64,000 nt of DNA from Syntrophorhabdaceae bacterium (GTDB taxonomy: Bacteria; Desulfobacterota; Syntrophorhabdia; Syntrophorhabdales; Syntrophorhabdaceae): positions 4,992,001-5,056,000 of the forward strand of contig OY762209.1 of the NCBI GenBank assembly GCA_963665295.1, given 5' to 3'. Within the stretch, counting starts at the first letter, position 1. Every line of letters starts with the position of its first letter. The position numbers and the translations under genes are program-made. The notes under the pieces were generated by a model. It saw only the letters and a list, made by a program, of their open reading frames with translations, was not told the origin of the DNA and ran no database searches. Positions 8,985 through 30,647 of this stretch are shown here, piece by piece.

Positions 8985-8986
8985 GG

Positions 8987-9454: not shown

Positions 9455-9464
9455 TGTCCACCCC

Positions 9465-10439: not shown

Positions 10440-10453
10440 GATGACCCCCTTTT

Positions 10454-11749: not shown

Positions 11750-11936
11750 TGTCTACCTCCTGTTAAGTTTACACCTTCTCAAACGGTCGAGCCCGCCGGC
11801 CGCATCGGACCGACCGGTCTTTCCGCGCTTACTGTCGACACTTCAGGATCAACAACTACGGTGTTGTTTTTCACGCAACGCTCAGCCGGGAGAAACCACG
11901 CTGTTTCCCCCGCCGGCGAGCCGCGGCTTCCGCCCG

Positions 11937-13646: not shown

Positions 13647-13647
13647 G

Positions 13648-15744: not shown

Positions 15745-15797
15745 ATATCCCTCCACACTCAGCTATTGGAAAAACACGGCAACGGTTTGCGGCTGGA

Positions 15798-17426
15798 TCA
15801 GAATAAGCCCGGTTCCTGAAACTCGCCGAATATCTGTCTGAAGATGTTCGTCATCTCCCCCACCGTTGCGTAGGCCTTGCAGCACTCGACAAGGCAGGGC
15901 ATCACGTTTGCGCCCTCCCGCGTTGTCTTCTCAAGTTCCTTGAGCGTACGGGCCACGTCCCGCTCGGACCTCTCCCTCTTCACTTCCTGGAGACCTTTGA
16001 GCTGTATCTCGGCTGATTCGTAGTTGTACTCGTGGAGTTCCACATCCCTCGGCTCTTCCTCGGTGTAGATATTCACGCCCACTTTGAGAAGTTCGCCTGA
16101 TTGGATGCCCTTTTCGAACTCGTAGGCCTGCCTCGCCACCAGCCTTTGAACGTATCCCGTGGCCACCGCCTTCACGATGCCCCCGATCTTTTCGATCTTC
16201 GCCATCTCCTCTTCGATCTTGCCTTCCATCTCCTTGGTCAGGGTCTCGATGAAGTAGCTCCCCGCAAGGGGGTCTACCGTGTCGCGCAGCCCCATCTCGT
16301 CCATGAGAAGCTGGAGCGTGCGAAGCGATAGGAGGGCGGAGTGGGGTGTGGGGATCGTATAGGCTTCATCGTAGCTGCAAAGGGCCGTGGTCTGGGCCCC
16401 GGAAAGGGCTGCCACGAGGGCGTAGTACGCGCCTCTCATGATGTTGTTCTCCGGCTGCGCCTTGGCAAGGCCATAACCGCCGCCACCGAACAGGCCGCGG
16501 AGATACAGGTTCTGGGGCTTTTTCACATCATACTTCTCCTTCAGGTTCCTGGCCCAGAGCTTCCTCGCCGCCCTGAATTTGGCGACCTGTTCCCACATGT
16601 TGCCGAAGACGTTGAGGTTGAACGAGAAGGTGCCCACAAACTCGTCCACGTCGTACCCCCTCGCGAGCACGTTGTCGATATAGGCGTTGGCGATGAGGAT
16701 CGCACAGGCGATCTCCTGGGCGGGCGTAGCGCCCGATTCCCGTATATGGTAGCCGCACACGCTGACCGGGTTTGCCCTCGGCAGGTTGGTCATGGCATAT
16801 TCGATGGTGTCGCCGATGAGCTTCACGGCGGGCTCTACAGGGAATATCCAGGCGCCCCTTCCGATCATCTCCTTCAGGATGTCGTTCTGGGGCGTCGCGG
16901 AGATCACCTTGGGGCTATACCCGTACTTCTCCGCCACCGCCTGGTACATGGCGAGCATGATGGACGCCACGGCGTTGATCGTAAGGCCCGACCCGATCTT
17001 GTCGAGGCGGATGTCCTTAAAGGCAATTTCAAAATCCCTCAGGGTATCGACGGCCATTCCCACGCGGCCTACCTCTCCGTCGGACATGGGGTCGTCGGAG
17101 TCGTAACCCATCTGAGTAGGAAGGTCAAAGGCCACGTTGAGGCCCGTTTGGCCATGGGCTATCATGAGCTTGAACCGCTCGTTCGTCTCCGCGGGCGTTC
17201 CGAAGCCCGTATACTGACGGGTGGTCCATGCCCTCGACCTGTATCCCAAAGGATGTATGCCCCTGGTGAAAGGGTATTCGCCGGGATCCGCCAAATCCTT
17301 TTCGTAGGAAAAACCTATGCGGTCAAGGTCTTCCGGGGTATAGACCGGCTTTACGTGAATGTCCGACTGGAGTATCACATCGGTTATGCGACCTTTTTCA
17401 TCCTTGATATATTTTGCGACCCCCAT
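15798..17426 (-). CDS. B12-dependent acyl-CoA mutase, substrate-binding (large) subunit
   Basis: PGEYPFTRG, WTTRQYTGF, AFDLPTQMGYDSD, QNDILKE, GYHIRE, DPLAGSY. Confidence 0.92.
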   Translation of the reverse strand: MGVAKYIKDEKGRITDVILQSDIHVKPVYTPEDLDRIGFSYEKDLADPGEYPFTRGIHPLGYRSRAWTTRQYTGFGTPAETNERFKLMIAHGQTGLNVAFDLPTQMGYDSDDPMSDGEVGRVGMAVDTLRDFEIAFKDIRLDKIGSGLTINAVASIMLAMYQAVAEKYGYSPKVISATPQNDILKEMIGRGAWIFPVEPAVKLIGDTIEYAMTNLPRANPVSVCGYHIRESGATPAQEIACAILIANAYIDNVLARGYDVDEFVGTFSFNLNVFGNMWEQVAKFRAARKLWARNLKEKYDVKKPQNLYLRGLFGGGGYGLAKAQPENNIMRGAYYALVAALSGAQTTALCSYDEAYTIPTPHSALLSLRTLQLLMDEMGLRDTVDPLAGSYFIETLTKEMEGKIEEEMAKIEKIGGIVKAVATGYVQRLVARQAYEFEKGIQSGELLKVGVNIYTEEEPRDVELHEYNYESAEIQLKGLQEVKRERSERDVARTLKELEKTTREGANVMPCLVECCKAYATVGEMTNIFRQIFGEFQEPGLF

Positions 17427-17435
17427 CTTTCCCTC

Positions 17436-17840
17436 CTAATCCTTCTTTACGTGGGACTTTAAGTAATCTATGATCTCCGAGAATGGGGTCCCCCCGGGGA
17501 AAACCCCGGATATGCCGAGGGCCTTGAGCTTCGGCACGTCCATGGCGGGGATCACCCCTCCGACGACGAGCATCTTGTCCTCGATCTCCTTCTCTTTCAC
17601 CTTCTGCACCAGTTTCTTCGCAATGGGAATGTGGGCCCCGCTCATGATGGAAAGACCTATGACGTCCACATCTTCCTGCACGGCGATATCGACAATCTGA
17701 TCCACGGTCCTGTGAAGCCCCGTATAGATTACCTCCATGCCCGCCTCCTTCAGCGCATGGGCCACCACCTTGGCGCCCCGGTCATGGCCGTCGAGGCCCG
17801 GCTTCGATACCAAAACCTTTATTCTCCGTTCTTCACCCAC
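17436..17840 (-). CDS. Acyl-CoA mutase cobalamin-binding (small) subunit
   Basis: GLDGHDRG (DxHxxG), SIMSGAH, VGGVIP. Confidence 0.95.
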   Translation of the reverse strand: MGEERRIKVLVSKPGLDGHDRGAKVVAHALKEAGMEVIYTGLHRTVDQIVDIAVQEDVDVIGLSIMSGAHIPIAKKLVQKVKEKEIEDKMLVVGGVIPAMDVPKLKALGISGVFPGGTPFSEIIDYLKSHVKKD

Positions 17841-17861
17841 GCTCCCTCCTTTAAACCTCGT

Positions 17862-18590
17862 TCATTCGAAGTGACCTGATTGCATCGCCTTCAGAATAAA
17901 GTTCTTCCCCTGCAGTATATGGGACTTCACGATCCTCTCCACGTTCTCCTTGTCTCCCCTGCGCATGGCTTCCACCATGGCTTTGTGCCCCTCCAGGGAA
18001 ACCCTGGCATTACTTTGGGAACTGAGCAGGGGTCTTCTGTATCGCGAGATATAGTCCACAAACATGTTGATCAGTTTGTTGAGCATTTCGCTCTTCGCAG
18101 ACCGGTAGATCATCTCATGGAACCGGATATTAAGCTCCATTACCTTTGCGAGGTCTCCTATTTCCAATGCCCGGGAAGACTCGTCGATGATGCTCTCCAG
18201 GGCGGCGATCACCTCATCGCTCACGTGATCGCACGCTTCGGCGGCCGCGTAGCTTTCAAGGGCCGCCCTGATACCGAAGGCTTCGTGTATATCCTCCTCC
18301 GATATCTTCTTCACTATGATGCCTCTTACGGGCAGCCTCTGCACAAACCCGTACTGTTCGAGTCTTTTTATCGCCTCCCTGACAGGCACCCGGCTCACCT
18401 GCATCTTGTCGGAAAGCTTCTGCTCCACCAGCCTCTGGCCGGGCTTCAAATCGCCGTTTACAATAGAGTCCTTCAGTATCCTGTAAACAACTTCCGCCAT
18501 TGATCTATGCTTGCCCACCGGCTCGATCCGGTCCAGAAAATCTGCCGGGTCCGACGGTATTTCCTTCTGAGGTTCCTTGCTTCTTGCCAT
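17862..18590 (-). CDS. GntR family transcriptional regulator (FCD domain)
   Basis: LKPGQRLVE...VSRVPVREA winged HTH; NIRFHEMI. Confidence 0.92.
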   Translation of the reverse strand: MARSKEPQKEIPSDPADFLDRIEPVGKHRSMAEVVYRILKDSIVNGDLKPGQRLVEQKLSDKMQVSRVPVREAIKRLEQYGFVQRLPVRGIIVKKISEEDIHEAFGIRAALESYAAAEACDHVSDEVIAALESIIDESSRALEIGDLAKVMELNIRFHEMIYRSAKSEMLNKLINMFVDYISRYRRPLLSSQSNARVSLEGHKAMVEAMRRGDKENVERIVKSHILQGKNFILKAMQSGHFE

Positions 18591-18606
18591 TGCCTTTGTT
18601 TCTCCT

Positions 18607-19761
18607 CTATTTTTCCGTTTTCCCCACGATCAACCTCCCGAGAAAGTCTTTGAGAATCTCGTGGGTTCCTCCTCCGTAAAGGAGGAACCGGGCATCCCGG
18701 AAGTGACGCTGCGGGTTGTACTCGCGAGCGAAGCCGTTCGCGCCCCATATCCTTGTTACTTCATCCACCACCTTGAGGCATGTTTCCGTGGCGAACATCT
18801 TTGCCATGGCCGCCTCTTTACGGCTCGACAGGCCTTCCTTAAGCCTCCATGCCGCGGAGAATATCATGAGCCTGCTCGCCTCCATCTCCGTTGCCATGTC
18901 GGCGAACTTTGCCCTGATCAACTGGTATGTGCCGATGGCTTTGCCGAAGGCCGTCCGTTTTCTCGCATATTCCAGGCCCTCCGCCATGGCTGCGGTGGCG
19001 ATACCGAGGGCCATTGCGCCCGTCATTACCCTCACTTCGTCGAGTATCTCCCCCAGGTACTCAGTGCCCTTGTTCACCTCGGCCCCCAAGAGGTTTTCCG
19101 CGGGGACCCTTACGTCCTCGAGGACCAACTCGCCTGTGATGGTGCCCCTGCACCCGAGTTTATCGATTATCTGTCCTGCGGAAAATCCCGGAGTCCCCTT
19201 TTCCACGAGGTAAAAGTTGAGTCCCTTTACTCCGAGAGAGGGGTCCGTGGTGGCAAGCACCGTGGCGAAGTCGGCGATGGGACCGTTCGTTATCCACATC
19301 TTGGTGCCGTTCAATATCCATTCGTTCCCGTCCTTTACCGCGGTGGTGCGGGTGGAGGCGAGGTCGGAGCCGGACTGGTCTTCGGTGAAACACATGGTGG
19401 CGATCTTTTCGCCCCTCATGGCGGGATATAGACACCTCTCCTTCATCTCCTCCGTGCCGAACCGGTAGATAAAATAGGTACCCATGAGAATATTCATGAT
19501 CACGCTCTGGGCAAAACCCACGGACCCCCGGGCGATCTGCTCGTAAAAAATCATGGCAGTCACGGGGTCGGCGTTCATACCCCCTATCTCCTCGGGATAC
19601 CGCAAGCCCAGGTAGCCCAGTTTGGTGAATTCACGCCACACTTCGTAGGGAAATTCATCTTTCTCATCTATTTCCTGAGCCTTCGGCACCACCATACGGT
19701 TGACTGTATCGGTAATCATCTTCTTGAAGAATTCCTGCTCTTCCGTCAATGCAAAATCCAT
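18607..19761 (-). CDS. Acyl-CoA dehydrogenase
   Basis: FTEDQSGSD, NGTKMWITN, RTAFGKAI, GANG, RDAR. Confidence 0.92.
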   Translation of the reverse strand: MDFALTEEQEFFKKMITDTVNRMVVPKAQEIDEKDEFPYEVWREFTKLGYLGLRYPEEIGGMNADPVTAMIFYEQIARGSVGFAQSVIMNILMGTYFIYRFGTEEMKERCLYPAMRGEKIATMCFTEDQSGSDLASTRTTAVKDGNEWILNGTKMWITNGPIADFATVLATTDPSLGVKGLNFYLVEKGTPGFSAGQIIDKLGCRGTITGELVLEDVRVPAENLLGAEVNKGTEYLGEILDEVRVMTGAMALGIATAAMAEGLEYARKRTAFGKAIGTYQLIRAKFADMATEMEASRLMIFSAAWRLKEGLSSRKEAAMAKMFATETCLKVVDEVTRIWGANGFAREYNPQRHFRDARFLLYGGGTHEILKDFLGRLIVGKTEK

Positions 19762-19827
19762 ATATGCCTCCTCGCGAAATCAGTTAAGGGGCTTTCGCCC
19801 TCAAGCCGGTGGTGGGACCCGGCGCAC

Positions 19828-20979
19828 TCAGACATCTCCATGTCTCAGACTCTCCGCCGCAATGATCGTTTTCAATATCTCGGAAGTCCCTCCGCCGAAG
19901 AGGAGAAAACGGGCGTCCCTGAAATACCTCTGGGCCGGGAATTCCTCTGCTATCCCGTACGCGCCGTGGATGCGGGTCACCTCGTCCACCACGTAGCACG
20001 CGGTCTCCGTGGAATAGAGCTTGGCCATGGCCGCCTCCTTGCCCGAGAGTTCTCCCCGGTCTTTGAGCCATGCCGCATAGTACGTGAGGAGCCACGATGT
20101 CCTGATCCTCATGTCCATCTCCGCAATCTTCTCCTGTATAAGCTGGAACTTGCCTATGGGTTTGCCGAAGGCAACCCGTTCCTTCGCATACTTCAATCCC
20201 GCGGTTCGGGCACTTTCCGCGAGGCCGAGGCCAAGGGCGGAGATCATTACCCGTATTTCGCTCAGGATGGCGTTCAGATATTGTGCTCCCCTGCCTTCTT
20301 CCCCCAGGAGGTTCTCCTTCGGGACCCGACACTCATCAAGAATAAGCTCTCCCGCGCTTGTCCCCCTGGCCGAGATCTTCTTGATATCGTGGCCCACGGA
20401 AAAACCGGGGTGATTTTTCTCCACGAGAAAAAACCCGAGGCCGTTGACCCGTTTGGAGGGGTCGGTCGTGGCCGCCACGGTAAAGAAGTCTGCGTCCCTG
20501 GCGTTCGTGATCCAGAGCTTTCTCCCGTTCAGCACGTAGCTGTCGCCGTCTTTCCTCGCCCGTGTCTTGACCGCCCCCAGGTCGGAGCCGCAGTCCGGTT
20601 CGGTGAAGGCGATGACCCCGATCTTCTCACCTTTAACGGCAGGGGCAAGAAGGCGCGTCTTCTGTTCATCAGTGCCGAAACGGTGGATAAAATCGGTGCC
20701 CATGAGGCACTGCATGGTTACGCCGGCCGCGAAGCTGATCGACACCTTCGCGAGTTCCTCGGCGAATATGGTGAAGGTCACACAATCGGACCCCATGCCC
20801 CCCGCTTCCGCAGGATACCTTATCCCGTAATAGCCAAGTTTTCCCAGTTCCCTGAATACTTCAAGGGGGAATTCATCATCTCTGTCGATCGCTTCCGCAT
20901 GGGGGAGTACGATCTCCCTGAGCGTCCGGGAGACTTGTTCTTTGAAAAACCGCTGTTCTTCCGTAAAATTGAAATCCAT
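19828..20979 (-). CDS. Acyl-CoA dehydrogenase
   Basis: FTEPDCGSD, NGRKLWITN, RVAFGKPI, RDAR. Confidence 0.92.
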   Translation of the reverse strand: MDFNFTEEQRFFKEQVSRTLREIVLPHAEAIDRDDEFPLEVFRELGKLGYYGIRYPAEAGGMGSDCVTFTIFAEELAKVSISFAAGVTMQCLMGTDFIHRFGTDEQKTRLLAPAVKGEKIGVIAFTEPDCGSDLGAVKTRARKDGDSYVLNGRKLWITNARDADFFTVAATTDPSKRVNGLGFFLVEKNHPGFSVGHDIKKISARGTSAGELILDECRVPKENLLGEEGRGAQYLNAILSEIRVMISALGLGLAESARTAGLKYAKERVAFGKPIGKFQLIQEKIAEMDMRIRTSWLLTYYAAWLKDRGELSGKEAAMAKLYSTETACYVVDEVTRIHGAYGIAEEFPAQRYFRDARFLLFGGGTSEILKTIIAAESLRHGDV

Positions 20980-21039
20980 CAGCCTCTTCTCATCTCCGTC
21001 GGCGCGCCCTCGTCCGATTCGCCGGACCCGGGTCCGCCC

Positions 21040-21987
21040 TTATGGGACGTCAAATTTTCCGATCACTCTTTCCGCGGCAGTATAGGGATCGATGCGCCCC
21101 TCCTCCATGTCGGCGGCGGCCGCGTCGAGCAGCCCTTCCTTCTCCGCCCCGGCAAGAAAACGCTTCCAGAGCAATTCCCTCAAAAGGGAACGCATGACCG
21201 CGTTTTTTCCTTCCCTTCGTCTCTCCTGCTTCTTTCCATCCTTTTCAAGGTAGTCCCAATGAGCCTCCAGGGCGGACACCACGTCCGGAACCCCTTCCCC
21301 CTTGAGGGCATGGGTGAGGAGCACCGGTATGTTCCAACCTTCCGGATCATGGGCGCTCAACTCGTTCACCGCGGCCATGGCGTCAAAGGCCATCTCTTCC
21401 GCGCCGGTCTTATCCCTCTTGTTGATTACCACTATATCGCCCACTTCCACTATCCCCGCCTTCAAAAGCTGGATCTCGTCCCCATAGTCCGGGGTCAGCA
21501 CGCATATCATGGTATCCGAGAAAGAGGCGATGCCCATTTCGGTCTGACCTACGCCCACGCTTTCCACGATAATCACGTCCTTGCCCAGGGCTTCCACCAC
21601 GTAGACCGCACCGGGCGTGGCCCGCGACACGCCGCCGGGGTAGCCCCTGTGGGCCATGGAGCGGATAAATATCCCTTTTACCTTGTCCGCTTCCTTCATC
21701 CTTACCCGGTCGCCGAGAAAAGCGCCTTTCCCTTTCATGCTTGTGGGATCGACTGCGATGATCCCCACATTTCTCCCCGCACCTGTGAGAGCCAGGGTGA
21801 TCTTGTTGATCAGCGTGCTCTTCCCCGTGCCGGGAGACCCCGTAACGCCTATCACGTGGGCCTTTCCCACGTGGGGGTAAAGCTCGCGCAGGGCTTCATA
21901 CCCGACCGCGTCGCCGTCCTCGATCATGGTGATAAGGCGGGCGGCGCTTCTCTCGTTCCCTGCGAGTATCTTTGCGACAAGTTCCAT
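21040..21987 (-). CDS. meaB: Mutase-associated GTPase chaperone MeaB/ArgK
   Basis: GVTGSPGTGKST, AVDPTS, LGDRVRM, ESVGVGQ, NKRD; adjacent to the mutase genes. Confidence 0.9.
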   Translation of the reverse strand: MELVAKILAGNERSAARLITMIEDGDAVGYEALRELYPHVGKAHVIGVTGSPGTGKSTLINKITLALTGAGRNVGIIAVDPTSMKGKGAFLGDRVRMKEADKVKGIFIRSMAHRGYPGGVSRATPGAVYVVEALGKDVIIVESVGVGQTEMGIASFSDTMICVLTPDYGDEIQLLKAGIVEVGDIVVINKRDKTGAEEMAFDAMAAVNELSAHDPEGWNIPVLLTHALKGEGVPDVVSALEAHWDYLEKDGKKQERRREGKNAVMRSLLRELLWKRFLAGAEKEGLLDAAAADMEEGRIDPYTAAERVIGKFDVP

Positions 21988-23177
21988 CAGATGACTTTGT
22001 CATCCTTTAATTTCTTCAGTCTTTCCTCGTCGTATCCGAGGATTTTGCCGTATATTTCCTGGTTGTGTTCCCCGAATCTCGGGGGGAAGGTCATTTTTCC
22101 GCCGCACTCTTTGAGATAGGGCGTCATGAAGGGGGGCGGCGCCATCCATATCTTCGTGCCTGTCTTCGGATCGACGCTTTCGAGAATGCCTTCTTTCACG
22201 TAGGAGTCCTCCAGCATATCCTCGATGGTGTTCACCTTGGAGATGGCAATGGTGGCCTTATTACAGAGACTTATCATCTCATCCGTGGTCCTGGTCCGCA
22301 TTATCTCGTTGATTTTGTTGTTCAGGTTTTTCACGTCCCTGATGCGGCCCGCGTTCTTTTCGTATTCAGGCTTCGCCAGGGATTCGAATCCGGGCAGTTG
22401 CGCAAAGGATGCCCACTGCCTGTCGTTTCCCACCGCGATGTAGACAAATCCGTCCTTTGTCCCGTAAACCGAAACAGGGGCGAAGAACTCATGCGTATTC
22501 CCTCTCCTCGTGATCCTGTTACCGAAGGACTTCGTGAGGGTTATGGCCACGGTGAGCCATGAGGTGGTGGACATGAACATGGAAAGGTCGATCCTTTCCC
22601 CAACGCCGGTCATAGCCTTCTTATAAAGGGCTTTCATGACGAGCCCGTACGCATGCTCGCTTGTGCCCATATCAGGCAAGGGAATGCCCAATACCTCCGG
22701 GCTCCCGTCCGCCTCTCCCGTAAGCTCCATGAGACCGCTCCGGGCCTGAAGTATGGGGTCGTAGGCGGCTTCGTTGCTGTCAGGGCCGAAGCCGGTGAGG
22801 CCCACCCAGATAATGTCCTCCTTGATCGATTTCAGGGTGTCGTAATCTATGCCCAGTTTCTCGTAATTCCTGGGCAACTGGTTTGTGGCGAAGATATCGA
22901 CGTTCAGTTTGGTGATGAGGTCCCTGAGGATCTCCTTTCCCCCCGGCGCGGCAAGATCGAGGGAAAGGGCTTTCTTCCCCGCGTTTATGGCCATAAAATA
23001 GGTGTTCATCCGCTCTTCGCCGAGTTTGTTGTCTCCTATCATCCGGTTGGGGTCTCCGTAGACAGGGTGTTCCAGTCGGATCACGTTGACGCCGTCCATT
23101 GCGAGCCGGTAGCTCAGATAGGGAAGCACGGTTGCCTGTTCCAGGGATAAGACGGTGATATTCCTAAAAATATTCAT
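21987..23177 (-). CDS. Family III (CaiB/BaiF) CoA transferase
   Basis: GDPNR, INAGKKALSLDL, GFGPD, AYDPILQARSG, PDMG (catalytic Asp position). Confidence 0.9.
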   Translation of the reverse strand: MNIFRNITVLSLEQATVLPYLSYRLAMDGVNVIRLEHPVYGDPNRMIGDNKLGEERMNTYFMAINAGKKALSLDLAAPGGKEILRDLITKLNVDIFATNQLPRNYEKLGIDYDTLKSIKEDIIWVGLTGFGPDSNEAAYDPILQARSGLMELTGEADGSPEVLGIPLPDMGTSEHAYGLVMKALYKKAMTGVGERIDLSMFMSTTSWLTVAITLTKSFGNRITRRGNTHEFFAPVSVYGTKDGFVYIAVGNDRQWASFAQLPGFESLAKPEYEKNAGRIRDVKNLNNKINEIMRTRTTDEMISLCNKATIAISKVNTIEDMLEDSYVKEGILESVDPKTGTKIWMAPPPFMTPYLKECGGKMTFPPRFGEHNQEIYGKILGYDEERLKKLKDDKVI

Positions 23178-23244
23178 GAGACCTCCTTAGAACGGATTAA
23201 CTGAATTGCTTTCTCCGAAATCAGAAAAAAACCTTCTTTTTTAT

Positions 23245-23273
23245 TTGACACCCTGTTATATTTGATATAACAT
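23245..23273 (+). promoter_or_regulatory. sigma70 promoter for the hcr-like operon
   Basis: TTGACA (23245-50), 17 nt spacer, TAACAT (23268-73). Confidence 0.7.
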
Positions 23274-23285
23274 TATTTTCATGTC

Positions 23286-23306
23286 TACGGTATACAGTAT
23301 TCAATA
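23286..23306. promoter_or_regulatory. Candidate GntR operator
   Basis: TACGGTATACAGTATTCAATA with a GTATAC core between two facing promoters; similar box at 57972-57990. Confidence 0.6.
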
Positions 23307-23313
23307 TGACGTA

Positions 23314-23342
23314 AGTATAGGAAATGGGCGTTTTATTGTCAA
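23314..23342 (-). promoter_or_regulatory. sigma70 promoter for the leftward CoA-transferase/mutase operon
   Basis: Minus strand TTGACA (23342-37), 17 nt spacer, TATACT (23319-14). Confidence 0.75.
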
Positions 23343-23390
23343 GCAATTTTGTTTTAAAGATGTTTTTTCCGGATATTAAAGGAGAATTTA

Positions 23391-24392
23391 ATGAGATTAC
23401 CGCCTTTCGACGTATTTGAGCCACGAACCATGAAGGATGCCCTCTCGATCATGCACGACCATGCAGGGGTCCTCAAAGTCATCGGCGGGGGGACTGAACT
23501 GGTGGGGCTGATGAAATTGAGGCTTGTCGTCCCTCAGTATGTCCTGAGCACCCGCAAGCTCGGGGCCTTGCGAGGGATCGAGGAAAAGAAGAATGAGGTC
23601 GTCATAGGCGCGGGCACCTCTTTGGCCGAGATAATGGAGTCGCCTGTTCTCGCCGGCAGGTTCCAGGCGGTGGTTGATGCCGCTTCCATGGTGGCCGCCT
23701 ATCCGATCCGGACCAGGGCGACCATTGGGGGAAATATCCTCCAGAATACGCGGTGTCTCTATTATAACCTGTCTGAGATTCCCCGGAAGGGGCTTCCCGC
23801 CTGCTTCAAGGCAGGGGGAAACGTCTGCAACGCGGTAAAAGGGTCGAAACGCTGTTTCAGCGTCTACCAGGGCGACATGGCCCCCGCTCTCATGAGCTTC
23901 GACGCAAGAATCCACCTGAAAAGATACAACGGCTCGCGGAAGGTTCCCCTCGCGCAACTCTATACAGGAGATGGGAAGAACCCCGTGGCCATCGGGCTCG
24001 ACGAGCTTCTCACCCACATCTCCATCCCCATGCCTGCCGGGGTTTACGGCTCTTCTTTCCAGAAGATACGGCTCCGGAAGGCCCTCGACTATCCTCTCGC
24101 CTCGGCAGCGGCATTCGTGTCGGTGAAGGCGGGCAACAAGGTCGATGAGGTGCGGGTGGTACTGGGGGCGGCCGGCTCGGGACCGAAACTGCTCGACACC
24201 ACGACAGGGTTTAAAGGTAAGGTCCTGGCAGAAAAGCAGATGGCCGAGATATCCGAAAAGGCCCTGAAGGCAGCCGAGATGACGGACAACACCGCGCTCC
24301 CCGGCTCCTACAGGCGGAAGATTATAAAGGTTGTCGCCGCAAGGGCGCTTCGCGATGCGCTTAGCCGCATCGAAAGGTCAGGTAAATCATGA
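23391..24392 (+). CDS. 4-hydroxybenzoyl-CoA reductase beta-like FAD/[4Fe-4S] subunit
   Basis: GGGTE, ATIGGN followed by a C-x15-C-x7-C-x8-C insertion, the HcrB-type spacing as I recall it. Confidence 0.85.
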   Translation: MRLPPFDVFEPRTMKDALSIMHDHAGVLKVIGGGTELVGLMKLRLVVPQYVLSTRKLGALRGIEEKKNEVVIGAGTSLAEIMESPVLAGRFQAVVDAASMVAAYPIRTRATIGGNILQNTRCLYYNLSEIPRKGLPACFKAGGNVCNAVKGSKRCFSVYQGDMAPALMSFDARIHLKRYNGSRKVPLAQLYTGDGKNPVAIGLDELLTHISIPMPAGVYGSSFQKIRLRKALDYPLASAAAFVSVKAGNKVDEVRVVLGAAGSGPKLLDTTTGFKGKVLAEKQMAEISEKALKAAEMTDNTALPGSYRRKIIKVVAARALRDALSRIERSGKS

Positions 24393-24868
24393 AAGAAACC
24401 ACAAAACGTGCCTTCACGCTGAAGGTCAATGGAGAGACTCACCATATAGAGACATACCCGAACCGCACCCTCCTTGAAGTGCTGAGAGAGGAGTTGAGCC
24501 TCACAGGGGCGAAGGAAGGCTGCGGCGAGGGCGCCTGTGGTTCCTGCACGGTCCTTCTCGACGGGCGGCCCGTACGGTCCTGTCTTCTTCTCGCAGTGGA
24601 AGCTCAGGACGGGGAGATCACCACCATCGAGGGTCTCGCGGATGGGCGCAACCTCCACCCACTCCAGGAAGCGTTTGTCGAGCACCATGCCATACAGTGC
24701 GGATTCTGCGCCTCCGGCATGATCCTCACCGCAAAGGCGTTCCTCGACAGCAATCCCCACCCCACCGAGGATCAGATCAAACTCGCCCTTTCAGGGAATG
24801 TCTGCCGCTGCACCGGGTATACGAAGATCATCGAAGCGGTAAAATCGGTCGCGGAGAGCAGGGGGTGA
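24389..24868 (+). CDS. XDH family 2x[2Fe-2S] subunit (HcrC-like)
   Basis: GCGEGACGSC, QCGFC, NVCRCTGY. Confidence 0.95.
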   Translation: MKETTKRAFTLKVNGETHHIETYPNRTLLEVLREELSLTGAKEGCGEGACGSCTVLLDGRPVRSCLLLAVEAQDGEITTIEGLADGRNLHPLQEAFVEHHAIQCGFCASGMILTAKAFLDSNPHPTEDQIKLALSGNVCRCTGYTKIIEAVKSVAESRG

Positions 24869-24873
24869 CGGCG

Positions 24874-27156
24874 ATGGAAGAATATACAAGTGTTGGGAAA
24901 AGCAGCAAGAGGGTCGATACGACAGCGAAGGCGACGGGCGAAGTCCTCTTCACCGCGGACCTTTCCCTGCCGAGAATGCTCATAGGCAAGGTATTGAGGT
25001 CGCCCCATCCCCATGCAAGGATACTTCACATAGACACGTCGAAAGCCAAAAAGCTTCCGGGCGTAAAAGCGGTGGTCACCGGAGCCGACACCTTTGGGGA
25101 GAAATGGGGCGTATTCCGGTACACCCAGGACCAGATATTCATGCCCTCCGAACGGGTTCGGTACGTGGGCGAAGAGATCGCCGCCGTTGCAGCCGTTGAC
25201 GAGGATACGGCACTGGCCGCCCTCGACCTCATCAGCGTGGAATATGAAATGCTGCCCGCCGTCTTCACCCTCGAAGAGGCCATGGCCCCGGGCGCTCCCC
25301 TCATCCACGAGGATAAGCCGGGAAATATCAACATTCATGTCAATATCGATGTGGGCGACATCGAAAAAGGATTCAGGGAATCATACCTGATTATGGAGGA
25401 TACCTTCAGCGCCCCCGAAGATTCCTATTTCCAGTCGGAGCCTTATGCGGTGGTGGCCCAGTTCGACCACTCGGGCAGCCTCGAAATATGGATGCCCAAT
25501 GCGGGCCCCCATCTCAAGGCAAAACCCCTCTCGAACTGTCTCCATATGCCCCTCAGCAAGGTGCGGGTAAGAAAGATCGCGATCGGCGGCCATTTCGGCG
25601 GCCGTTCCGAAATCTCCCCTGCCGACATGGTGTGTGCCCTCCTCGCCAAGAAGGCGAAGCGGCCCGTCAAGATTGTCTATACCAGGGAAGAAAATTCCAT
25701 CTGCACCCGCCAGGGCCACGCAATGGTCGCCACCATCAAGACCGGCGTCGATAAAGACGGGAAGGTCCTTGCAAGAGATATTACCTCGTACCTCGACGGC
25801 GGCGCCTACTCGAGCACGGGCCCCATAGCGGTGAGCGTGCCCTTTCTCTGCATGGAGCAGGCCTATCGCATGGACAACGTGCGCTTCAACGGTTACAGGG
25901 TGTTCACAAACAAACCCATACGGGGCATGATAAGGATCCATGGAAGGGCTTTCGGCACCGGCGTAGACCTCCAACTCGACATGATCGGCGAAAAACTCGG
26001 TATCGATCCCATCGAAATGCGCCTGCGCAACGCGCGTCAGGCGGGTGACTACACACCCACAAAGTCCTTTGTCGCAAGCTGCGGCCTGACGGAGACAATC
26101 CTTGAGACCGCGGAGCATTCTCATTTTAAGGAAAGATTCAAACACCTGCCGCCCTTCCACGGCATCGGAATAGGCGTAAATTCCGTGCAGACGGGGTTCC
26201 CCATGGGCATCAGGGGAGGGTCCCAGGCGTTTATCAAGTTTACCGAGGACGGGACCGTCACTGTCATATCCGGCGTAGTCGACAATGGCCAGGGCAACGA
26301 TAATATGCTCTCCCAGATTACCTCGGAAGAATTGGGCTTGAGACCTGACGACATTCAACTCATTACGGCCGATACGGAAGTCACACCCACCGACCCCGGA
26401 TCCTACTCCATGTGCGAGACCTTCATCGGAGGAAACGCGGTGAGGCTTGCGGCAATAGACGCGAAAAGGCAACTCTTCGAGGTCGCCGCGCCCCTGCTCA
26501 AGGCAGGCGTTGATGAACTCCAGGCAAAAGACAACAAGATCATGGTCAAGGGTGCTCCGGAGCGGAGCATGTCCATAGGCAAAGTGGTAAGGACGGCCCT
26601 CAGCCGCGGTCAGTCCATCAGCGGACAGGGGGCATACTGGCCGAAGGTCGACCCCAAGAGGGAGTGGGTCGAGAACCCCTTCGGACAGCTTTGCGAAGCT
26701 TTCTCCTTCGGGGCCACCATCGCCGAAGTGAAGGTCGATCCCGAGACGGGGCTTGTGGAGGTAGTGGAAATATGGGCGGCCCAGGACGTGGGATTCACCA
26801 TCAACCCCAAGGCCGTGGAGGGACAATTCCAGGGAGGCATCGCCATGGGCGGTCAGGGAGGGATGCTCACCGAGTATCATCTCTGGAACCAGGGACGGGT
26901 GCTCAACCCCTCGCAACTCGAATACAAGGTCCCCCTCGCAGCGGACATGCCCAAGATCAACACCTACATTATCGAGACCATAGACCCGAACGGCCCTTAC
27001 GGAGCCAAGGAATCAGGGATGTCCGTATCCATGTCGGCGGCCCAGGCATACTGCGGCGCTATCTGCAATGCCATAGGAGTCTATATAAAGGAATACCCAA
27101 TAACCCCGGACAAGATACTCAAGGCACTGGAAGAAAAGAATAAGAGGGGAAAATGA
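24874..27156 (+). CDS. XDH family Mo-binding subunit, HcrA-like with divergent active site
   Basis: RSPHPHA, GGHFGGR, MIRIHG, DNGQG, GPYGAKESGM. Confidence 0.85.
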   Translation: MEEYTSVGKSSKRVDTTAKATGEVLFTADLSLPRMLIGKVLRSPHPHARILHIDTSKAKKLPGVKAVVTGADTFGEKWGVFRYTQDQIFMPSERVRYVGEEIAAVAAVDEDTALAALDLISVEYEMLPAVFTLEEAMAPGAPLIHEDKPGNINIHVNIDVGDIEKGFRESYLIMEDTFSAPEDSYFQSEPYAVVAQFDHSGSLEIWMPNAGPHLKAKPLSNCLHMPLSKVRVRKIAIGGHFGGRSEISPADMVCALLAKKAKRPVKIVYTREENSICTRQGHAMVATIKTGVDKDGKVLARDITSYLDGGAYSSTGPIAVSVPFLCMEQAYRMDNVRFNGYRVFTNKPIRGMIRIHGRAFGTGVDLQLDMIGEKLGIDPIEMRLRNARQAGDYTPTKSFVASCGLTETILETAEHSHFKERFKHLPPFHGIGIGVNSVQTGFPMGIRGGSQAFIKFTEDGTVTVISGVVDNGQGNDNMLSQITSEELGLRPDDIQLITADTEVTPTDPGSYSMCETFIGGNAVRLAAIDAKRQLFEVAAPLLKAGVDELQAKDNKIMVKGAPERSMSIGKVVRTALSRGQSISGQGAYWPKVDPKREWVENPFGQLCEAFSFGATIAEVKVDPETGLVEVVEIWAAQDVGFTINPKAVEGQFQGGIAMGGQGGMLTEYHLWNQGRVLNPSQLEYKVPLAADMPKINTYIIETIDPNGPYGAKESGMSVSMSAAQAYCGAICNAIGVYIKEYPITPDKILKALEEKNKRGK

Positions 27157-27292
27157 TGGGATCAGCAAGAATCTGAACGCGGGAACCATATTGTATCAAG
27201 GCTGATACATACCCGGAATATTCACATTGCGGCACGACCCGGAAGGCGGTTCGCGGCGTCCCGCGCCACAAAGAGCCAGAGAGGGGGCCTCG

Positions 27293-27625
27293 ATGAAGAT
27301 CGGAAAGAGCGATGATCTTCCTTATATGGTCCGCGGTCTGGAAGAGGCGATGAAAGCCTGTCATAAGGACCCGGGACTCACCCCCGGCAGGGAGGCAGGG
27401 AAGTCTGCTGCCGCAAGGGGCGAAGGGCTCTTTCCCATCTCCTGCAAGGCAGACAGAGCCGGCAAAGTACTGAAAGGATTAAGAGACAAAGGGGTTCAAC
27501 TCAACGACGAGAAACCACGTCATCTATTCGGCAACAGTTATGCGTTCATCCGTCACCCGGCAAAGCCCTTCGGGGCACTGACGAAGGTGCCGGACGGCGA
27601 ATTCGGCGTCAGCGAAGCATCGTGA
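27293..27625 (+). pseudogene. Decayed VOC/methylmalonyl-CoA epimerase-like gene
   Basis: MKIGK..VRGLEEA and RGEGL...LRDKGVQLNDEKPR...YAFIRHP resemble the epimerase ends; middle missing and metal ligands lost. Confidence 0.55.
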
Positions 27626-27755
27626 TAATGAAAAAATAACTGGTGCATTTTTTCGGAAAAACTTACAATTGATTTGGTATACAATTCGACTCTTTTTAAA
27701 AGGGGGTGAGATTAAGCAGTACACCAATAATCTTATACCGAAAAGGGGGCTTACC

Positions 27756-28787
27756 ATGATCAAGAAGATAGGGTTCGCAGTCGTTATTCTCGCATTCTTT
27801 GCCGTCACATTTCTGGTCTCTCCTCCCCAGGCGGCAAGCCAGAGCGTAATCACCCTGAAATACGCCAACTTTCCGCCTGCCACCACGTTTCCGTGCGTCC
27901 AGATGGAGAGGTGGGCAAAAGAGGTGGAAAAGAGGACGGCGGGCAAGGTGAAGGTACAGACCTTCCCCGGAGGCACACTGCTCCCTGCCAAGAATATCTT
28001 TGACGGAGTCCTCACCGGCATGGCGGACATCGGGAACTTTGCCATGAGCTACCAGCCGGGCCGTTTCCCGGTCTCCGAGGCAATAGACCTGCCCATGGGC
28101 TTCAACAGCGCCCGGGCCGCGAGCCTTGCCCTTTTCGACCTTGTAGAGAAGTACCAGCCCAAGGAATTTGAAAAGGTAAAGATCCTCACCCTTTTCACCT
28201 GCCCTCCCGCGGACATCATGTCAAGCAAACCTGTGAAGTCCCTGAAGGACCTCAAAGGCATGGAGCTTCGCGTGTCGGGTACGGGTTCGGATGTGATAAA
28301 GCGTCTGGGCGGCATCCCCGTTGCCATGCCGCAGTCCGAGACACCCGAGGCCATCCAGAAGGGCGTAGTGAAGGGCATCGTCTCCTCCACGGAAATCCTC
28401 AAGGATTTCAACTTCGCCGCATACTGCCCCTACGTCACGGAATCAAACCTTTTTGTGGTCTCCTTTGCGGTGGTCATGAACAAGGACAAGTGGAATTCCC
28501 TCCCCGCCGATGTAAAGAAGGTGCTTGACGACCTGAGAAGAGAGCAAGCCGAATGGACGGGAAAATATGTGGACGACCATGTGAAAGAGGCAATCACCTG
28601 GTCGAAGCAGAAGTATAACCTCCAGATGATATCATTGCCTGCCGCAGAAAAGGCGGAAATACCCAAGCTCCTCAAGCCTATGATCGACGATTACCTGAAG
28701 AGAGTGAACGCTCAGGGCCTGCCGGGAGACAAGATCGTGAGAGATGTCTATCTCTTGAAAGCCAAATACGAGCAGCCGTCTAAATAA
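27756..28787 (+). CDS. TRAP transporter substrate-binding protein DctP
   Basis: Signal peptide, FPGGTL, LKDLKGMELRV, AIQKGVVKG, MNKDKWNSLP. Confidence 0.92.
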   Translation: MIKKIGFAVVILAFFAVTFLVSPPQAASQSVITLKYANFPPATTFPCVQMERWAKEVEKRTAGKVKVQTFPGGTLLPAKNIFDGVLTGMADIGNFAMSYQPGRFPVSEAIDLPMGFNSARAASLALFDLVEKYQPKEFEKVKILTLFTCPPADIMSSKPVKSLKDLKGMELRVSGTGSDVIKRLGGIPVAMPQSETPEAIQKGVVKGIVSSTEILKDFNFAAYCPYVTESNLFVVSFAVVMNKDKWNSLPADVKKVLDDLRREQAEWTGKYVDDHVKEAITWSKQKYNLQMISLPAAEKAEIPKLLKPMIDDYLKRVNAQGLPGDKIVRDVYLLKAKYEQPSK

Positions 28788-28851
28788 CCGGGGCGGGTAA
28801 AGGGACGTCCCCCGGGGCGTCTTTTACCCGCATTCGCACGCGGAGGCAACA

Positions 28852-29337
28852 ATGAATTATCTCGACAAGTTCAATGTTTTCCTGAACAAGATCCTCATGA
28901 TCTTGGGGGGCATGGCGGTGCTCGGGCTCATGTCCCTCGCCACGGGCAACGTGGTCCTCAGAATCTTTCACATGCCATACCGGGGGGCCTACGAACTCGT
29001 TTCCTTTATGGGGGCGATAGTCATCGCCTTTGCTCTCGGCTACACACAGAAGAGGAAGGACCACATTGTCGTTGACATCCTTACAGAGAAGTTCCCGAAA
29101 AAGCTTAACCGCGTCCTCGACGCAATCAACTATTTCGTCACTCTCATATTCTTCTCCATTATCACGTGGCAGATCTTTGTGTGGGGCATGAAGATATGGG
29201 AGGCGAACGAGGTGTCGGAGACCCTGAAGGTCATTTACTACCCCTTCGTGTTTTGCGTTTCCGCGGGGTTCGGGGTGTTATCTCTCACACTCCTGGTCGA
29301 TCTGCTGAAAACATTCCGGAAAAAAGAGGAGAAATAG
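28852..29337 (+). CDS. TRAP small permease DctQ
   Basis: Four TM segments, HIVVDIL; lies between dctP and dctM. Confidence 0.9.
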   Translation: MNYLDKFNVFLNKILMILGGMAVLGLMSLATGNVVLRIFHMPYRGAYELVSFMGAIVIAFALGYTQKRKDHIVVDILTEKFPKKLNRVLDAINYFVTLIFFSIITWQIFVWGMKIWEANEVSETLKVIYYPFVFCVSAGFGVLSLTLLVDLLKTFRKKEEK

Positions 29338-29339
29338 CA

Positions 29340-30647
29340 ATGGACGGACCTATTGTCGGAATATACGGAATCATCGTAATGTTCGCTATCCTGTTCCTGT
29401 TCAAGATACCGGCCGGCTTTACCATGGCCCTGGTAGGCTTCCTTGGGGTCATCTACGTGACGTCCCTCAAAGCGGCCCTCGGTATGATCGGCACGGAACT
29501 CTGGAACATCTTTTCAAGCTACGGCCTCACCGTGATTCCCATGTTCATCCTGGTGGGAGAGTTCGCCCACTACGGCGGTTACAACAACAGCCTCTACAAG
29601 GCCACCTATAAATGGTTCGGCCATTACAAGGGAGGTCTTGCGATAACCACCATCATGGCATGCGCCATCTTCTCCGCCATCAGCGGTTCCAACACGGCGA
29701 CGGCAGCCACCATGAGTACCGTGGCCATACCGGAAATGAAGAAATATAATTACCATCCCCAGTTGAGCGCCGGATCGGTCGCGGCGGGAGCCACCCTGGG
29801 AGTCCTCATACCTCCGAGCATCGTCCTCGTGGTTTATGGGCTCTACACAGGCCAGTCGATCGGCAAGCTCTTCTTCGGAAACGTAATACCGAGCGCCATA
29901 CTGACCATACTCATCGCCGCCACCGTCATTTACATATGCTGGCGAAATCCCACGTGGGGACCGAAGGGACCGAGAAGCACCTGGCTCGAAAGACTGAAAG
30001 CCCTTCCGGACCTCATCGATATCATGATCCTCTTCGTCATCATCATGTACGCCCTTTTTACCGGCGTGGTAACGGCCACGGAGGCCGCGGCGGCAAGTTG
30101 CGCCATAGCGCTGATCCTCTGTCTCGTACGGAAGAAAATAACATGGCAAGGCTTCATTGCTTCCATTGTCGATACACTCCGTATCTCCTGCCTCGTCTTC
30201 ATGATCGTCGCGGGAGCGGTTATTTTCGGAAGATTCCTCGCGGTTACGAGGCTGCCCTATGAAGCCGCCTCCATCATATCGAGTCTTGCCCTCCCCAACT
30301 GGGTGCTCTTCTGGATCATCATACTCTGTTACATCATAGGCGGCTGCGTCATGGACGCCCTCGCCTTCCTTCTCGTCTCCCTGCCCATCTTCTATCCCAT
30401 CGTCATGCAGATGGGGTATGACCCGATCTGGTTCGGCCAGGTTATCTGCATAGTGACCACCATGGGATCGATTATGCCGCCCATTGGAATATGCTGCTAC
30501 GTGGTTGCGGGGATGGCGAAGGAGATCCCCCTGGGCACGGTATTCAGAGGGAGTCTTTACTACATACCTTCCTACATCGTATCCATCATACTCCTCATGC
30601 TCTTCCCCTACTCGACGGTCCTGGTGCTTTCCAATATTGTGCGGTAG
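29340..30647 (+). CDS. TRAP large permease DctM
   Basis: IPMFIL, AISGS, LIPPSI, ATEAA, DPIWFG, PPIG. Confidence 0.92.
   Translation: MDGPIVGIYGIIVMFAILFLFKIPAGFTMALVGFLGVIYVTSLKAALGMIGTELWNIFSSYGLTVIPMFILVGEFAHYGGYNNSLYKATYKWFGHYKGGLAITTIMACAIFSAISGSNTATAATMSTVAIPEMKKYNYHPQLSAGSVAAGATLGVLIPPSIVLVVYGLYTGQSIGKLFFGNVIPSAILTILIAATVIYICWRNPTWGPKGPRSTWLERLKALPDLIDIMILFVIIMYALFTGVVTATEAAAASCAIALILCLVRKKITWQGFIASIVDTLRISCLVFMIVAGAVIFGRFLAVTRLPYEAASIISSLALPNWVLFWIIILCYIIGGCVMDALAFLLVSLPIFYPIVMQMGYDPIWFGQVICIVTTMGSIMPPIGICCYVVAGMAKEIPLGTVFRGSLYYIPSYIVSIILLMLFPYSTVLVLSNIVR

Follow-up and report, generated by a model that had tools for sequence, protein, structure and literature searches.

A three-gene operon at nt 23391–27156 (plus strand) of a 64,000-nucleotide stretch from a Syntrophorhabdaceae bacterium (contig OY762209.1, positions 4,992,001 to 5,056,000; the whole stretch is called the window here) encodes a molybdenum enzyme that belongs to the xanthine oxidase (XO) family and is related to 4-hydroxybenzoyl-coenzyme A (CoA) reductase (4-HBCR). 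The enzyme carries Met and Ala at two positions of its molybdenum (Mo) subunit where the family has Glu and Gln, and the loss of both residues is shared by a whole clade. It is probably a functional, non-hydroxylating redox enzyme of an anaerobic indoleacetate (iaa) type pathway. The reaction that we favour, with a probability of about 0.38, is a Birch-type reductive deamination of a 2-aminoaryl-CoA, a proposal drawn from gene context and chemical analogy. What the data show directly is how the subunits are built, which residues are replaced and how well the clade conserves them, together with the synteny, the co-occurrence in genomes and a shared cis element. An earlier reading of this DNA, referred to below as the original prediction, had singled out the Met.

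The three subunit genes are tightly packed on one strand in the order FAD-FeS-Mo. The first encodes the FAD subunit (nt 23391–24392, 333 residues), and its stop codon overlaps the start of the second gene in an ATGA. The second encodes the small subunit, which has two [2Fe-2S] domains (nt 24389–24868, 159 residues; Pfam Fer2_2 and Fer2). The Mo subunit (nt 24874–27156, 760 residues), identified by Pfam, NCBIfam and alignment with HcrA, starts at ATG 24874, five bases past the small-subunit stop, and not at GTG 24697 of the longest open reading frame (ORF). It matches Ald_Xan_dh_C, MoCoBD_1 and MoCoBD_2 with E values of 1e-27 to 1e-63, and the FAD subunit matches FAD_binding_5 and CO_deh_flav_C; the Pfam set of the XO family is complete in the three subunits.

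An ungapped phmmer alignment of the Mo subunit with HcrA of Thauera aromatica (1rm6_A, E 5.7e-137) places Met716 opposite Glu726, which we take to be the counterpart of bovine Glu1261, the catalytic general base of the XO family. The C-terminal motif reads GPYGAKESGM, with GAKESGM facing GAKEASE of HcrA; the DNA is aag gaa tca ggg atg, and the Met716 codon is ATG 27019–27021. The codon, the motif and its contrast with GPFGAKGIGE in the other XO-family enzyme of the window are all as the original prediction had described them; the Mo subunit of that second enzyme (nt 6705–9050) is also canonical in GGGFGS and AMRGYG. Another replacement, overlooked by the original prediction, is Ala210 opposite HcrA Gln214, presumably the equivalent of bovine Gln767, which contacts the apical Mo=O. 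The loop GSYSMCET replaces GSYGSRVT, so that the Arg of GSR is Cys in this Mo subunit, and the Lys of GGGFGGK is Arg. The replaced first-shell residues are those that hydroxylases use to activate Mo-OH.

The Met is conserved among homologues. It is present in 121/121 proteins examined (the best 120 matches in an index of 5.8 billion proteins, 73–100% identical) and in 210 of a set of 213 near homologues, each 700 residues or longer, that was extended by a second search seeded with a Desulfatiglandales member; one of the others has Leu and two were missed by the regular expression. Thus it is neither a chance event nor a sequencing error, and a private mutation, which the original prediction had allowed for, is excluded. 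Gln was found in the NAG/NGG/SAG region in none of the 213 near homologues. GGHFGGR (about residues 242–248) and MIRIHG (residues 351–356), also listed in the original prediction, are both present, but they are subgroup traits only (GGHFGGR in 11/213 and MIRI in 19/213 near homologues); GGAFGGR is the usual form (201/213). A sister group at 52–58% identity has Leu at the Glu position in 19/19 sequences read. The two groups are called the Met clade and the Leu clade below.

A FastTree LG+gamma tree of 183 sequences joins Met and Leu members in one clade of 32 with a support of 0.999. The clade contains 21 Leu and 11 Met members, all with Ala at the Gln column, and none that bears Glu. Within the Leu group the Met group forms a nested branch (support 1.0), and an Ile/Ser representative is sister to the clade. 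Beyond three single Met-bearing representatives follows the next canonical group (joint support 0.885), which scores 851–960 bits on TIGR03194. Since this group lies just under the cut-off of that model, the Met/Leu clade is placed by the tree as an offshoot of the HBCR radiation that adjoins a near-canonical 4-HBCR group. On the subunit scores given below, it would not be 4-HBCR itself. The clade is one of Desulfobacterota-type anaerobes, and its named members are from Syntrophorhabdaceae, Syntrophus, Syntrophaceae, Desulfobacca, Desulfarculaceae, Desulfomonile, Desulfobacteraceae and Desulfatiglandales, and include an Olavius symbiont.

Active-site columns were read in alignments of the best 150 representatives from a search over 1.84 billion proteins, plus the own-genome paralogues. 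The canonical set is 109 sequences selected as bearing both Glu and Gln; accordingly the catalytic-Glu column has Glu in 109/109 and the Mo=O Gln column has Gln in 100% of them. In the 32 clade members the clade-wide replacements are Gln210 to Ala (32/32), Glu716 to Leu (21) or Met (11), and Arg514 to Ala, Cys or Val, and Gly355 is lost. Of the 120 columns that are at least 85% conserved among the canonical sequences, 101 are kept in the Glu-less clade. With so many columns kept and the replacements clean and clade-wide, the Mo site is, as judged from the alignment, retuned on an intact scaffold and not decayed.

The original prediction had named a degenerate, inactive Mo site as a possible outcome; what was found is a remodelled one. 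A large subunit that is a dead scaffold, or a complex that merely shuttles electrons, would fit the disappearance of three of the best-conserved first-shell residues. We consider this highly improbable. Apart from the conserved columns, the sequences are 66–87% identical across several bacterial families, the replacements are themselves conserved (Met 210/213, Leu 19/19, Ala 32/32), and all three subunits and the four-Cys insert of the FAD subunit (see below) are retained. The Mo subunits from 80 related loci are 66–77% identical, the same range as the neighbouring enzymes, which is the mark of strong purifying selection on the clade at the sequence level.

Two residues were considered as stand-ins for the lost Glu. 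The original prediction had asked whether the Glu three residues upstream (AKE) could substitute. This Glu is present in 32/32 clade members; it is ancestral, being found also in HcrA and in 9/9 sister sequences that keep the catalytic Glu, and is ruled out as a compensating gain. The Cys or Glu of the SMCE loop is likewise ruled out as a clade-wide replacement, as SMCE occurs in 111/213 near homologues and the others have SMVS, SQVS and similar loops.

The FAD subunit supports a reductase-type enzyme. Its FAD_binding_5 match covers residues 5–214 on a profile of 170 positions, which indicates an insert of about 40 residues. The insert has the spacing C-x15-C-x7-C-x8-C (NTRC LYYNLSEIPRKGLPA C FKAGGNV C NAVKGSKR C), and a HMMER alignment (E 6.5e-44) lays it over that of 1rm6_B, the 4-HBCR beta subunit, with 4/4 Cys opposite Cys. 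The HcrB-type insertion for an extra [4Fe-4S] cluster, which the original prediction had recognized, is thus real, and it is also a feature of the clade, kept in 60/61 Met-clade and 17/17 Leu-clade FAD subunits. In 4-HBCR the extra [4Fe-4S] cluster goes with an inverted electron flow, from ferredoxin to Mo.

The 4-HBCR equivalog models of NCBIfam rank first for the alpha and beta subunits, and TIGR03193 ranks fifth for gamma. No subunit reaches the cut-off: alpha has 646.2 bits against 994.55 (TIGR03194), beta 238.7 against 404.55 (TIGR03195) and gamma 169 against 257.8 (TIGR03193). The window's ordinary hydroxylase scores 658 bits on the alpha model, as high as the target, so the raw alpha score says little.

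These data bear on the plainest alternative, namely that the enzyme is the 4-HBCR of these strict anaerobes, in which the Glu drifted because dehydroxylation needs no general base. The closest family and the closest structure are indeed 4-HBCR, and the Glu loss recurs in near-canonical relatives such as representative P0140 (Gln; 885 bits on TIGR03194). The own genome encodes 13 XO-family large subunits and has no Glu-keeping enzyme with a four-Cys FAD subunit; the insert occurs only in the target and in a Leu-type paralogue (par7, 52% identity, among the five further paralogue neighbourhoods scanned, par1, par2, par3, par6 and par7). In G001 and G183, two genomes from the family of the own genome, no enzyme other than the Met-clade one has the insert. 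Syntrophorhabdus is described, in the accessible part of PMC5946492, as a key phenol degrader via 4-hydroxybenzoate. Even so, we find this alternative quite unlikely. All three subunits score far under the equivalog cut-offs, and the coordinated loss of the Gln, the Glu and the GSR Arg looks like retuning rather than drift. Among the recurrent neighbour families of 80 Met-clade and 20 Leu-clade loci, whose family representatives were scanned, there is no phenol or 4-hydroxybenzoate gene, and the link with the iaa-like, aminotransferase and saccharopine-dehydrogenase-like genes described below is found in two subclades with a divergence of about 50%.

Several other variants were seen in the radiation. 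The Glu was lost, to Gln or Met, several more times in HBCR-like representatives outside the Met/Leu clade (P0140, P0217, P0189, P0194 and P0161), most of which retain the Mo=O Gln. Locus L120 (genome G047, C11:44014-47863) holds a third HBCR-like type with a four-Cys FAD subunit, in which the catalytic Glu is kept (KEVGEG) and the Gln position is Met (TSGMGVF), as in representatives P0132 and P0179; G047 has an orthologue of the saccharopine-dehydrogenase-like gene and no gene of the Met/Leu clade. XO-family matches of 40–43% identity in G050, G121, G008, G148 and G109 contain one or two in-frame TGA codons, which could be selenocysteine codons, frameshifts or breaks. In the own genome, locus L097 (G000, C1:2,684,900-2,699,600) is a cluster of three XO-family large subunits, one canonical, one a Leu-type paralogue with a four-Cys FAD subunit and one an FeS-Mo fusion. 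Scattered among them are two class-V (NifS-like) aminotransferase genes, an MvhD-like gene and a gene of the histone-deacetylase family. No iaa genes are found near L097.

The reductase operon diverges from a 16.5-kb operon on the minus strand (nt 6705–23177). Starting from the reductase side, this encodes a family III CoA-transferase (nt 21987–23177), MeaB (nt 21040–21987), two tandem IaaF-type acyl-CoA dehydrogenases (nt 19828–20979 and 18607–19761), a GntR/FCD regulator (nt 17862–18590), the small, B12-binding subunit (nt 17436–17840) and the large subunit (nt 15798–17426) of a mutase, hydantoinase/caprolactamase-like proteins A (nt 13648–15756) and B (nt 11937–13667), a PaaK-type CoA ligase (nt 10454–11749) and the canonical XO-family hydroxylase (FAD nt 9465–10439, FeS nt 8987–9454, Mo nt 6705–9050). 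The hydroxylase keeps both the Glu (GAKGIGE) and the Gln, and its FAD subunit has no insert. Both dehydrogenases read LL[YF]GGGT, and GGG in place of YEG is the hallmark of the benzylmalonyl-CoA dehydrogenase IaaF subclass (PMC8360864, accessible text). The original prediction had placed an iaa-like operon beside the reductase; with the enzyme set in one cluster and the IaaF motif in both dehydrogenases, we assign the operon, at the level of protein families, to the iaa type. In related loci, one of the tandem dehydrogenases is about 85% identical to the window's copy and the other 45–74%; thus the IaaF duplication is old.

Compared with the iaa cluster of Aromatoleum aromaticum, as presented in the accessible text of PMC8360864, the window operon shares the ligase, the hydroxylase, the hydantoinase-like pair, the CoA-transferase III and the B12 mutase, together with the IaaF-type GGG dehydrogenases and a regulator. 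That text makes no mention of the reductase as a member of the pathway, and no paper among those listed in a literature search treats iaa or indoleacetate together with hydroxybenzoyl-CoA reductase.

Three further proteins accompany the reductase. A VOC/glyoxalase-family protein resembling methylmalonyl-CoA epimerase (132 residues, nt 27227–27625, plus strand) follows the Mo gene and was recognized through tblastn and its relatives. The window copy has no Pfam match; it shares 31–50% identity with the gene that occupies this position in 36/80 loci, the copy at locus L002 matches Glyoxalase_4 (E 1.5e-16), and there is a weak PDB match to methylmalonyl-CoA epimerase (E 0.04). A saccharopine-dehydrogenase-family (SDH-like) oxidoreductase (nt 56819–57958, minus strand) and a class-III aminotransferase resembling glutamate-1-semialdehyde aminomutase (nt 55539–56792, minus strand) are located about 28 kb from the reductase in the window. 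They are 79% and 77% identical, respectively, to genes that directly follow the reductase at locus L039, and are conserved partners that the original prediction overlooked. For the SDH-like protein, the ESM Atlas gives generic saccharopine-dehydrogenase clusters only.

The neighbourhoods of 80 Met-clade loci were compared in species-representative genomes with 10-kb flanks. ORFs were called and then clustered; the calling is crude and breaks up or overlooks some genes, so that the counts are minimum values. Orthologues were assigned by tblastn with identity thresholds. The commonest neighbour family is the class-III aminotransferase of about 418 residues (31/80 loci), followed by the SDH-like protein of about 380 residues (29/80) and the VOC protein (28/80 by clustering, 39/80 by tblastn). 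Next come a second XO-family enzyme, GntR, TRAP, IaaF-type dehydrogenases, the ligase, the CoA-transferase, hydantoinase B and electron transfer flavoprotein (ETF). At least one iaa-like orthologue is present in 42 of all 80 loci, and the aminotransferase or SDH-like gene in 33. Fifty-eight loci span at least 12 kb; of these, 38 have iaa-like genes, 30 have the aminotransferase or SDH-like gene and 55 have either; 25 of the 37 full 22-kb loci have iaa-like orthologues, and 36 have these or the aminotransferase/SDH-like genes.

The loci of at least 12 kb with neither gene set are L015, L019 and L026. L015, which has a phosphoenolpyruvate-synthase-like gene upstream, was for that reason considered as a cluster like the ani genes of Desulfatiglans anilini and rejected, since its NCBIfam matches are the unrelated phosphoenolpyruvate synthase, SerB and photolyase. 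L019 is also unrelated to such a cluster and has a peptide ABC transporter and an MttB-like gene.

The partners of the Leu clade are those of the Met clade, as seen in 20 loci; in 10 of them the SDH-like gene adjoins the aminotransferase gene. In five Leu-clade operons of one family (L098-L102) the reductase is followed by the SDH-like, class-III aminotransferase and VOC genes and then by a TrpB-like PLP enzyme, a small ORF, a class I/II aminotransferase and indolepyruvate:ferredoxin oxidoreductase alpha, in this order. The TrpB-like enzyme scores 719 bits, above the cut-off, and the oxidoreductase alpha 663 against 650.9. From this gene content, indole or tryptophan would seem to feed the indoleacetyl-CoA route, which would also yield reduced ferredoxin.

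The association was also surveyed in 300 other genomes drawn evenly from the phylum, at thresholds of our own choice; residue identity was read only in fetched loci, and an identity of at least 62% was taken as the Met band and 50–62% as the Leu band. A Glu-less HBCR-like gene, matching the Mo subunit at 50% identity or more, is present in 51/300 genomes, of which 19 fall in the Met band and 32 in the Leu band. Orthologues of hydantoinase A, taken at 63% identity or more, occur in 36/300, and 30 of the 36 are among the 51. An SDH-like orthologue (at least 57% identity) is present in 37/300, of which 32 are among the 51, and it often adjoins the Mo gene. Both orthologues are missing from 11 of the 51 genomes; 5 of these 11 carry a hydantoinase paralogue of 34–38% identity on the contig of the Mo gene. 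The co-occurrence of the Met with iaa-like genes that the original prediction had proposed as a check is therefore seen both in the loci (38/58 of at least 12 kb) and in the genomes (30/36 with hydantoinase A). By synteny and co-occurrence, we regard the reductase as a fixed part of the iaa-like gene set of strict anaerobes for indoleacetate and tryptophan catabolism.

A shared cis element connects the separated genes of the window. In a cis-element search, the divergent intergenic region between the iaa-like and reductase operons (nt 23178–23390) was found to contain the 14-mer ATATAACATTATTT at nt 23265–23278, followed 8 nt on by ACGGTATAC, and the palindrome TGTTATATTTGATATAACA at nt 23254–23272. 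A genome-wide motif search located a second copy at nt 57983–58012 on the minus strand, with ATATAACATTATTT followed 10 nt on by GGTATACC. The two copies lie 126 nt upstream of the FAD gene and about 40 nt upstream of the SDH-like gene, in identical orientation relative to the gene. The 14-mer occurs exactly twice in the 5.5-Mb genome, where about 0.04 chance occurrences are expected for a given 14-mer, and the composite motif (14-mer core, 5–14 nt, GGTATAC) has these two sites and one degenerate match elsewhere. GntR-family regulators bind GGTATAC-type palindromic boxes, and such a box stands 8–10 nt after each copy of the 14-mer. The presence of a genome-unique 14-mer before both genes supports one regulon for the reductase and the SDH-like/aminotransferase pair, with a putative binding factor. 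The reductase thus appears to be co-regulated with the iaa-like operon, through the shared divergent promoter region, and with the distant partner pair.

What reaction would such an enzyme catalyze? The founding iaa paper reportedly ends the pathway with a 2-aminobenzoyl-CoA-type product. The proposed pathway gives 2-aminocinnamoyl-CoA for further beta-oxidation (PMC8360864, accessible text). For a route that ends in a 2-aminoaryl-CoA, the reductive expulsion of ammonia is the most economical reaction. We infer the direction of electron flow, a CoA-ester substrate and the deamination. The extra [4Fe-4S] cluster would pass low-potential electrons of ferredoxin towards Mo in an enzyme with FAD, [2Fe-2S] clusters and molybdenum cofactor. 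A two-electron Birch-type reduction would then expel the ortho-amino group of a 2-aminoaryl-CoA, so that ammonia and the de-aminated aryl-CoA are formed. This 2-aminoaryl-CoA would be 2-aminobenzoyl-CoA, or possibly 2-aminocinnamoyl-CoA, and the reaction would be the amino counterpart of 4-hydroxybenzoyl-CoA dehydroxylation. A hydrophobic pocket with Met or Leu and Ala may fit an amine ligand better than a carboxylate would.

Five points weigh against this deaminase. A one-step deaminase does not need the aminotransferase/SDH-like/VOC trio, which are the most faithful neighbours; either the nitrogen leaves by transamination after a reduction, or the trio belongs to another step of the pathway. 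Seven Syntrophorhabdus-type loci consist only of FAD-FeS-Mo-VOC-SDH-like-aminotransferase amid housekeeping genes, and no CoA ligase or iaa gene lies within 10 kb of them. The hydantoinase-A orthologue is missing, at the threshold used, from 21/51 Glu-less genomes. The Met-clade enzyme of G001 and G183, as the sole one with the four-Cys insert, could be the 4-HBCR of these two bacteria. Finally, the co-occurrence counts overstate the statistical weight, as related genomes are not independent.

The trio brings in another reading, in which the reductase would reduce the aminoaryl-CoA or another intermediate and its partners would process the product, with the nitrogen leaving a non-aromatic carbon by transamination. 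The SDH-family protein would reduce an enoyl or imine group or dehydrogenate an amine, the aminotransferase would be a beta-aminoacyl-CoA transaminase and the VOC protein an epimerase. The four genes are the tightest unit, as the aminotransferase is found at 31, the SDH-like gene at 29 and the VOC gene at no fewer than 28 of the 80 loci, and the first two are neighbours in half of the Leu-clade loci. Of the 37 surveyed genomes with an SDH-like orthologue, 32 have a Glu-less reductase; the separated halves in the window share the genome-unique cis element; and the aminotransferase is closest to glutamate-1-semialdehyde aminomutases and other amine/aldehyde transaminases. Nevertheless, the partners might serve entry steps, for example the conversion of tryptophan or tryptamine, and 19/51 Glu-less genomes have no SDH-like orthologue at the threshold. 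We know of no XO-family enzyme with dearomatising activity, and a ring that bears an amino substituent is harder to reduce. Such a reading is rather unlikely in our estimate.

A wider version of it would make the Met/Leu clade the first XO-family type to work without the catalytic Glu and the Mo=O Gln, and the long-missing aminobenzoyl-CoA reductase of strict anaerobes, which with its partners would form a novel four-enzyme, ATP-independent module; we see this as rather unlikely too. The fixed partners in the module would be an SDH-family reductase, a class-III transaminase of the beta-aminoacyl-CoA type and a VOC epimerase. Its role would be to remove the ring nitrogen from 2-aminoaryl-CoA esters that originate from tryptophan, indole, auxin and anthranilate, and it would be driven by ferredoxin reduced via indolepyruvate:ferredoxin oxidoreductase.

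The reductase might also act earlier, on an oxidized lactam of the indole or quinoline type between the hydroxylase and the ATP-dependent lactam hydrolysis, re-using electrons from the neighbouring hydroxylase. The one-strand order hydantoinase A/B, ligase, hydroxylase, reductase recurs, and the canonical hydroxylase ends directly upstream of the reductase, on one strand, in 18 loci. Leu-clade genes lie near hydantoinase paralogues (31–38% identity) in L109, L110 and L113, and pairs of a Leu-clade gene and a hydantoinase paralogue share a contig in G282, G021, G164, G096 and G185. In sulfate reducers, 2-quinolinone reportedly undergoes reduction to the 3,4-dihydro form before the ring is opened. 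On the other side, 2-oxoindoleacetate requires no reduction prior to hydrolysis, stand-alone operons exist without hydroxylase and hydantoinase, and the XO family offers no known precedent. We consider a role in the upper pathway very unlikely.

The reductive deaminase that we favour can be compared with known systems. HcrABC of Thauera aromatica (PDB 1RM6/1SB3) shares the three-subunit architecture, the four-Cys insert and the AKE Glu with the target. The target differs in having Met for Glu726, Ala for Gln214 and Cys for the GSR Arg, in the gene order FAD-FeS-Mo, and in a context of indoleacetate-type and aminotransferase genes instead of 4-hydroxybenzoate or phenol genes.

The second XO-family enzyme demonstrated to act reductively, according to its authors, is UcdhABC of Enterocloster bolteae, a urolithin C 9-dehydroxylase that removes the substituent para to an electron-withdrawing carbonyl (bioRxiv 10.1101/2025.01.17.632430, accessible part). 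It differs from the target as a non-CoA phenol dehydroxylase that uses NADH, and is 32.7% identical to 4-HBCR by the authors' figure in that part of the preprint.

A parallel in Desulfatiglans anilini points the same way. According to the accessible part of PMC7500099, HBCR-like proteins of this bacterium (H567DRAFT_03875/03876 and 03202-03204) reach high abundance on aniline or 4-aminobenzoate only, and its authors put them forward as a candidate 4-aminobenzoyl-CoA reductase acting by reductive deamination. Compared by description only, this candidate is like the target in being HBCR-like, in occurring in a strict anaerobe and in its link with aminobenzoyl-CoA. The part of the proteome table seen in PMC7500099 has no entry annotated as saccharopine dehydrogenase, and the aminomutase entries shown there (2 of 6) are locus 01561, elsewhere in the genome. 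D. anilini is not named among the 120 matches listed for the Desulfatiglandales Met-clade seed, of which only about one quarter of the proteins are named. A search of the literature on reductive deamination of aminobenzoyl-CoA, and on 2-aminobenzoyl-CoA with benzoyl-CoA reductase, found no paper that describes the Met/Leu clade.

The remaining genes of the window include a TRAP transporter after the VOC gene (nt 27669–30647, plus strand), with DctP at nt 27669–28787, DctQ at nt 28852–29337 and DctM in the ORF at nt 29166–30647, where the Pfam match begins at residue 70. The trio also follows the reductase in 16–18/80 loci. On the minus strand, towards the window end, are an ETF:quinone-oxidoreductase-like gene (nt 61300–62568), ETF alpha (nt 62561–63517) and ETF beta (nt 63528–63911). 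The ETF beta, ETF alpha and ETF:quinone-oxidoreductase-like families are found in 13, 11 and 6 of the 80 related loci, and iaa operons of strict anaerobes have a dedicated ETF (PMC8360864, accessible text).

Three long plus-strand ORFs without a family match are antisense to genes described above: nt 19840–22119 (759 residues) to MeaB and an acyl-CoA dehydrogenase, nt 55446–56819 (457 residues) to the aminotransferase and nt 56762–58015 (417 residues) to the SDH-like gene. Gene calling based on ORF length would conceal the SDH-like and aminotransferase genes beneath these spurious ORFs.

The gene set has implications for the pathway and for the enzyme family. To our knowledge, the published Aromatoleum iaa cluster includes a single Mo enzyme and lacks an HBCR-like reductase, an SDH-like protein and a class-III aminotransferase; the iaa gene set of strict anaerobes would thus hold at least four genes beyond that model. 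The anaerobic removal of a ring amino group is known only as an activity of cell extracts, with no enzyme identified. The Met/Leu clade is a sharply defined candidate for the ring-deaminating enzyme, with defined partner genes, and is directly testable. It can be diagnosed in sequences by Ala at the Gln position, Met or Leu at the Glu position and an FAD subunit with the four Cys, and would extend the short list of reductive XO-family members, 4-HBCR and Ucdh. Whatever the substrate, a conserved XO-family clade without the Glu/Gln pair challenges the textbook requirements of the Mo site.

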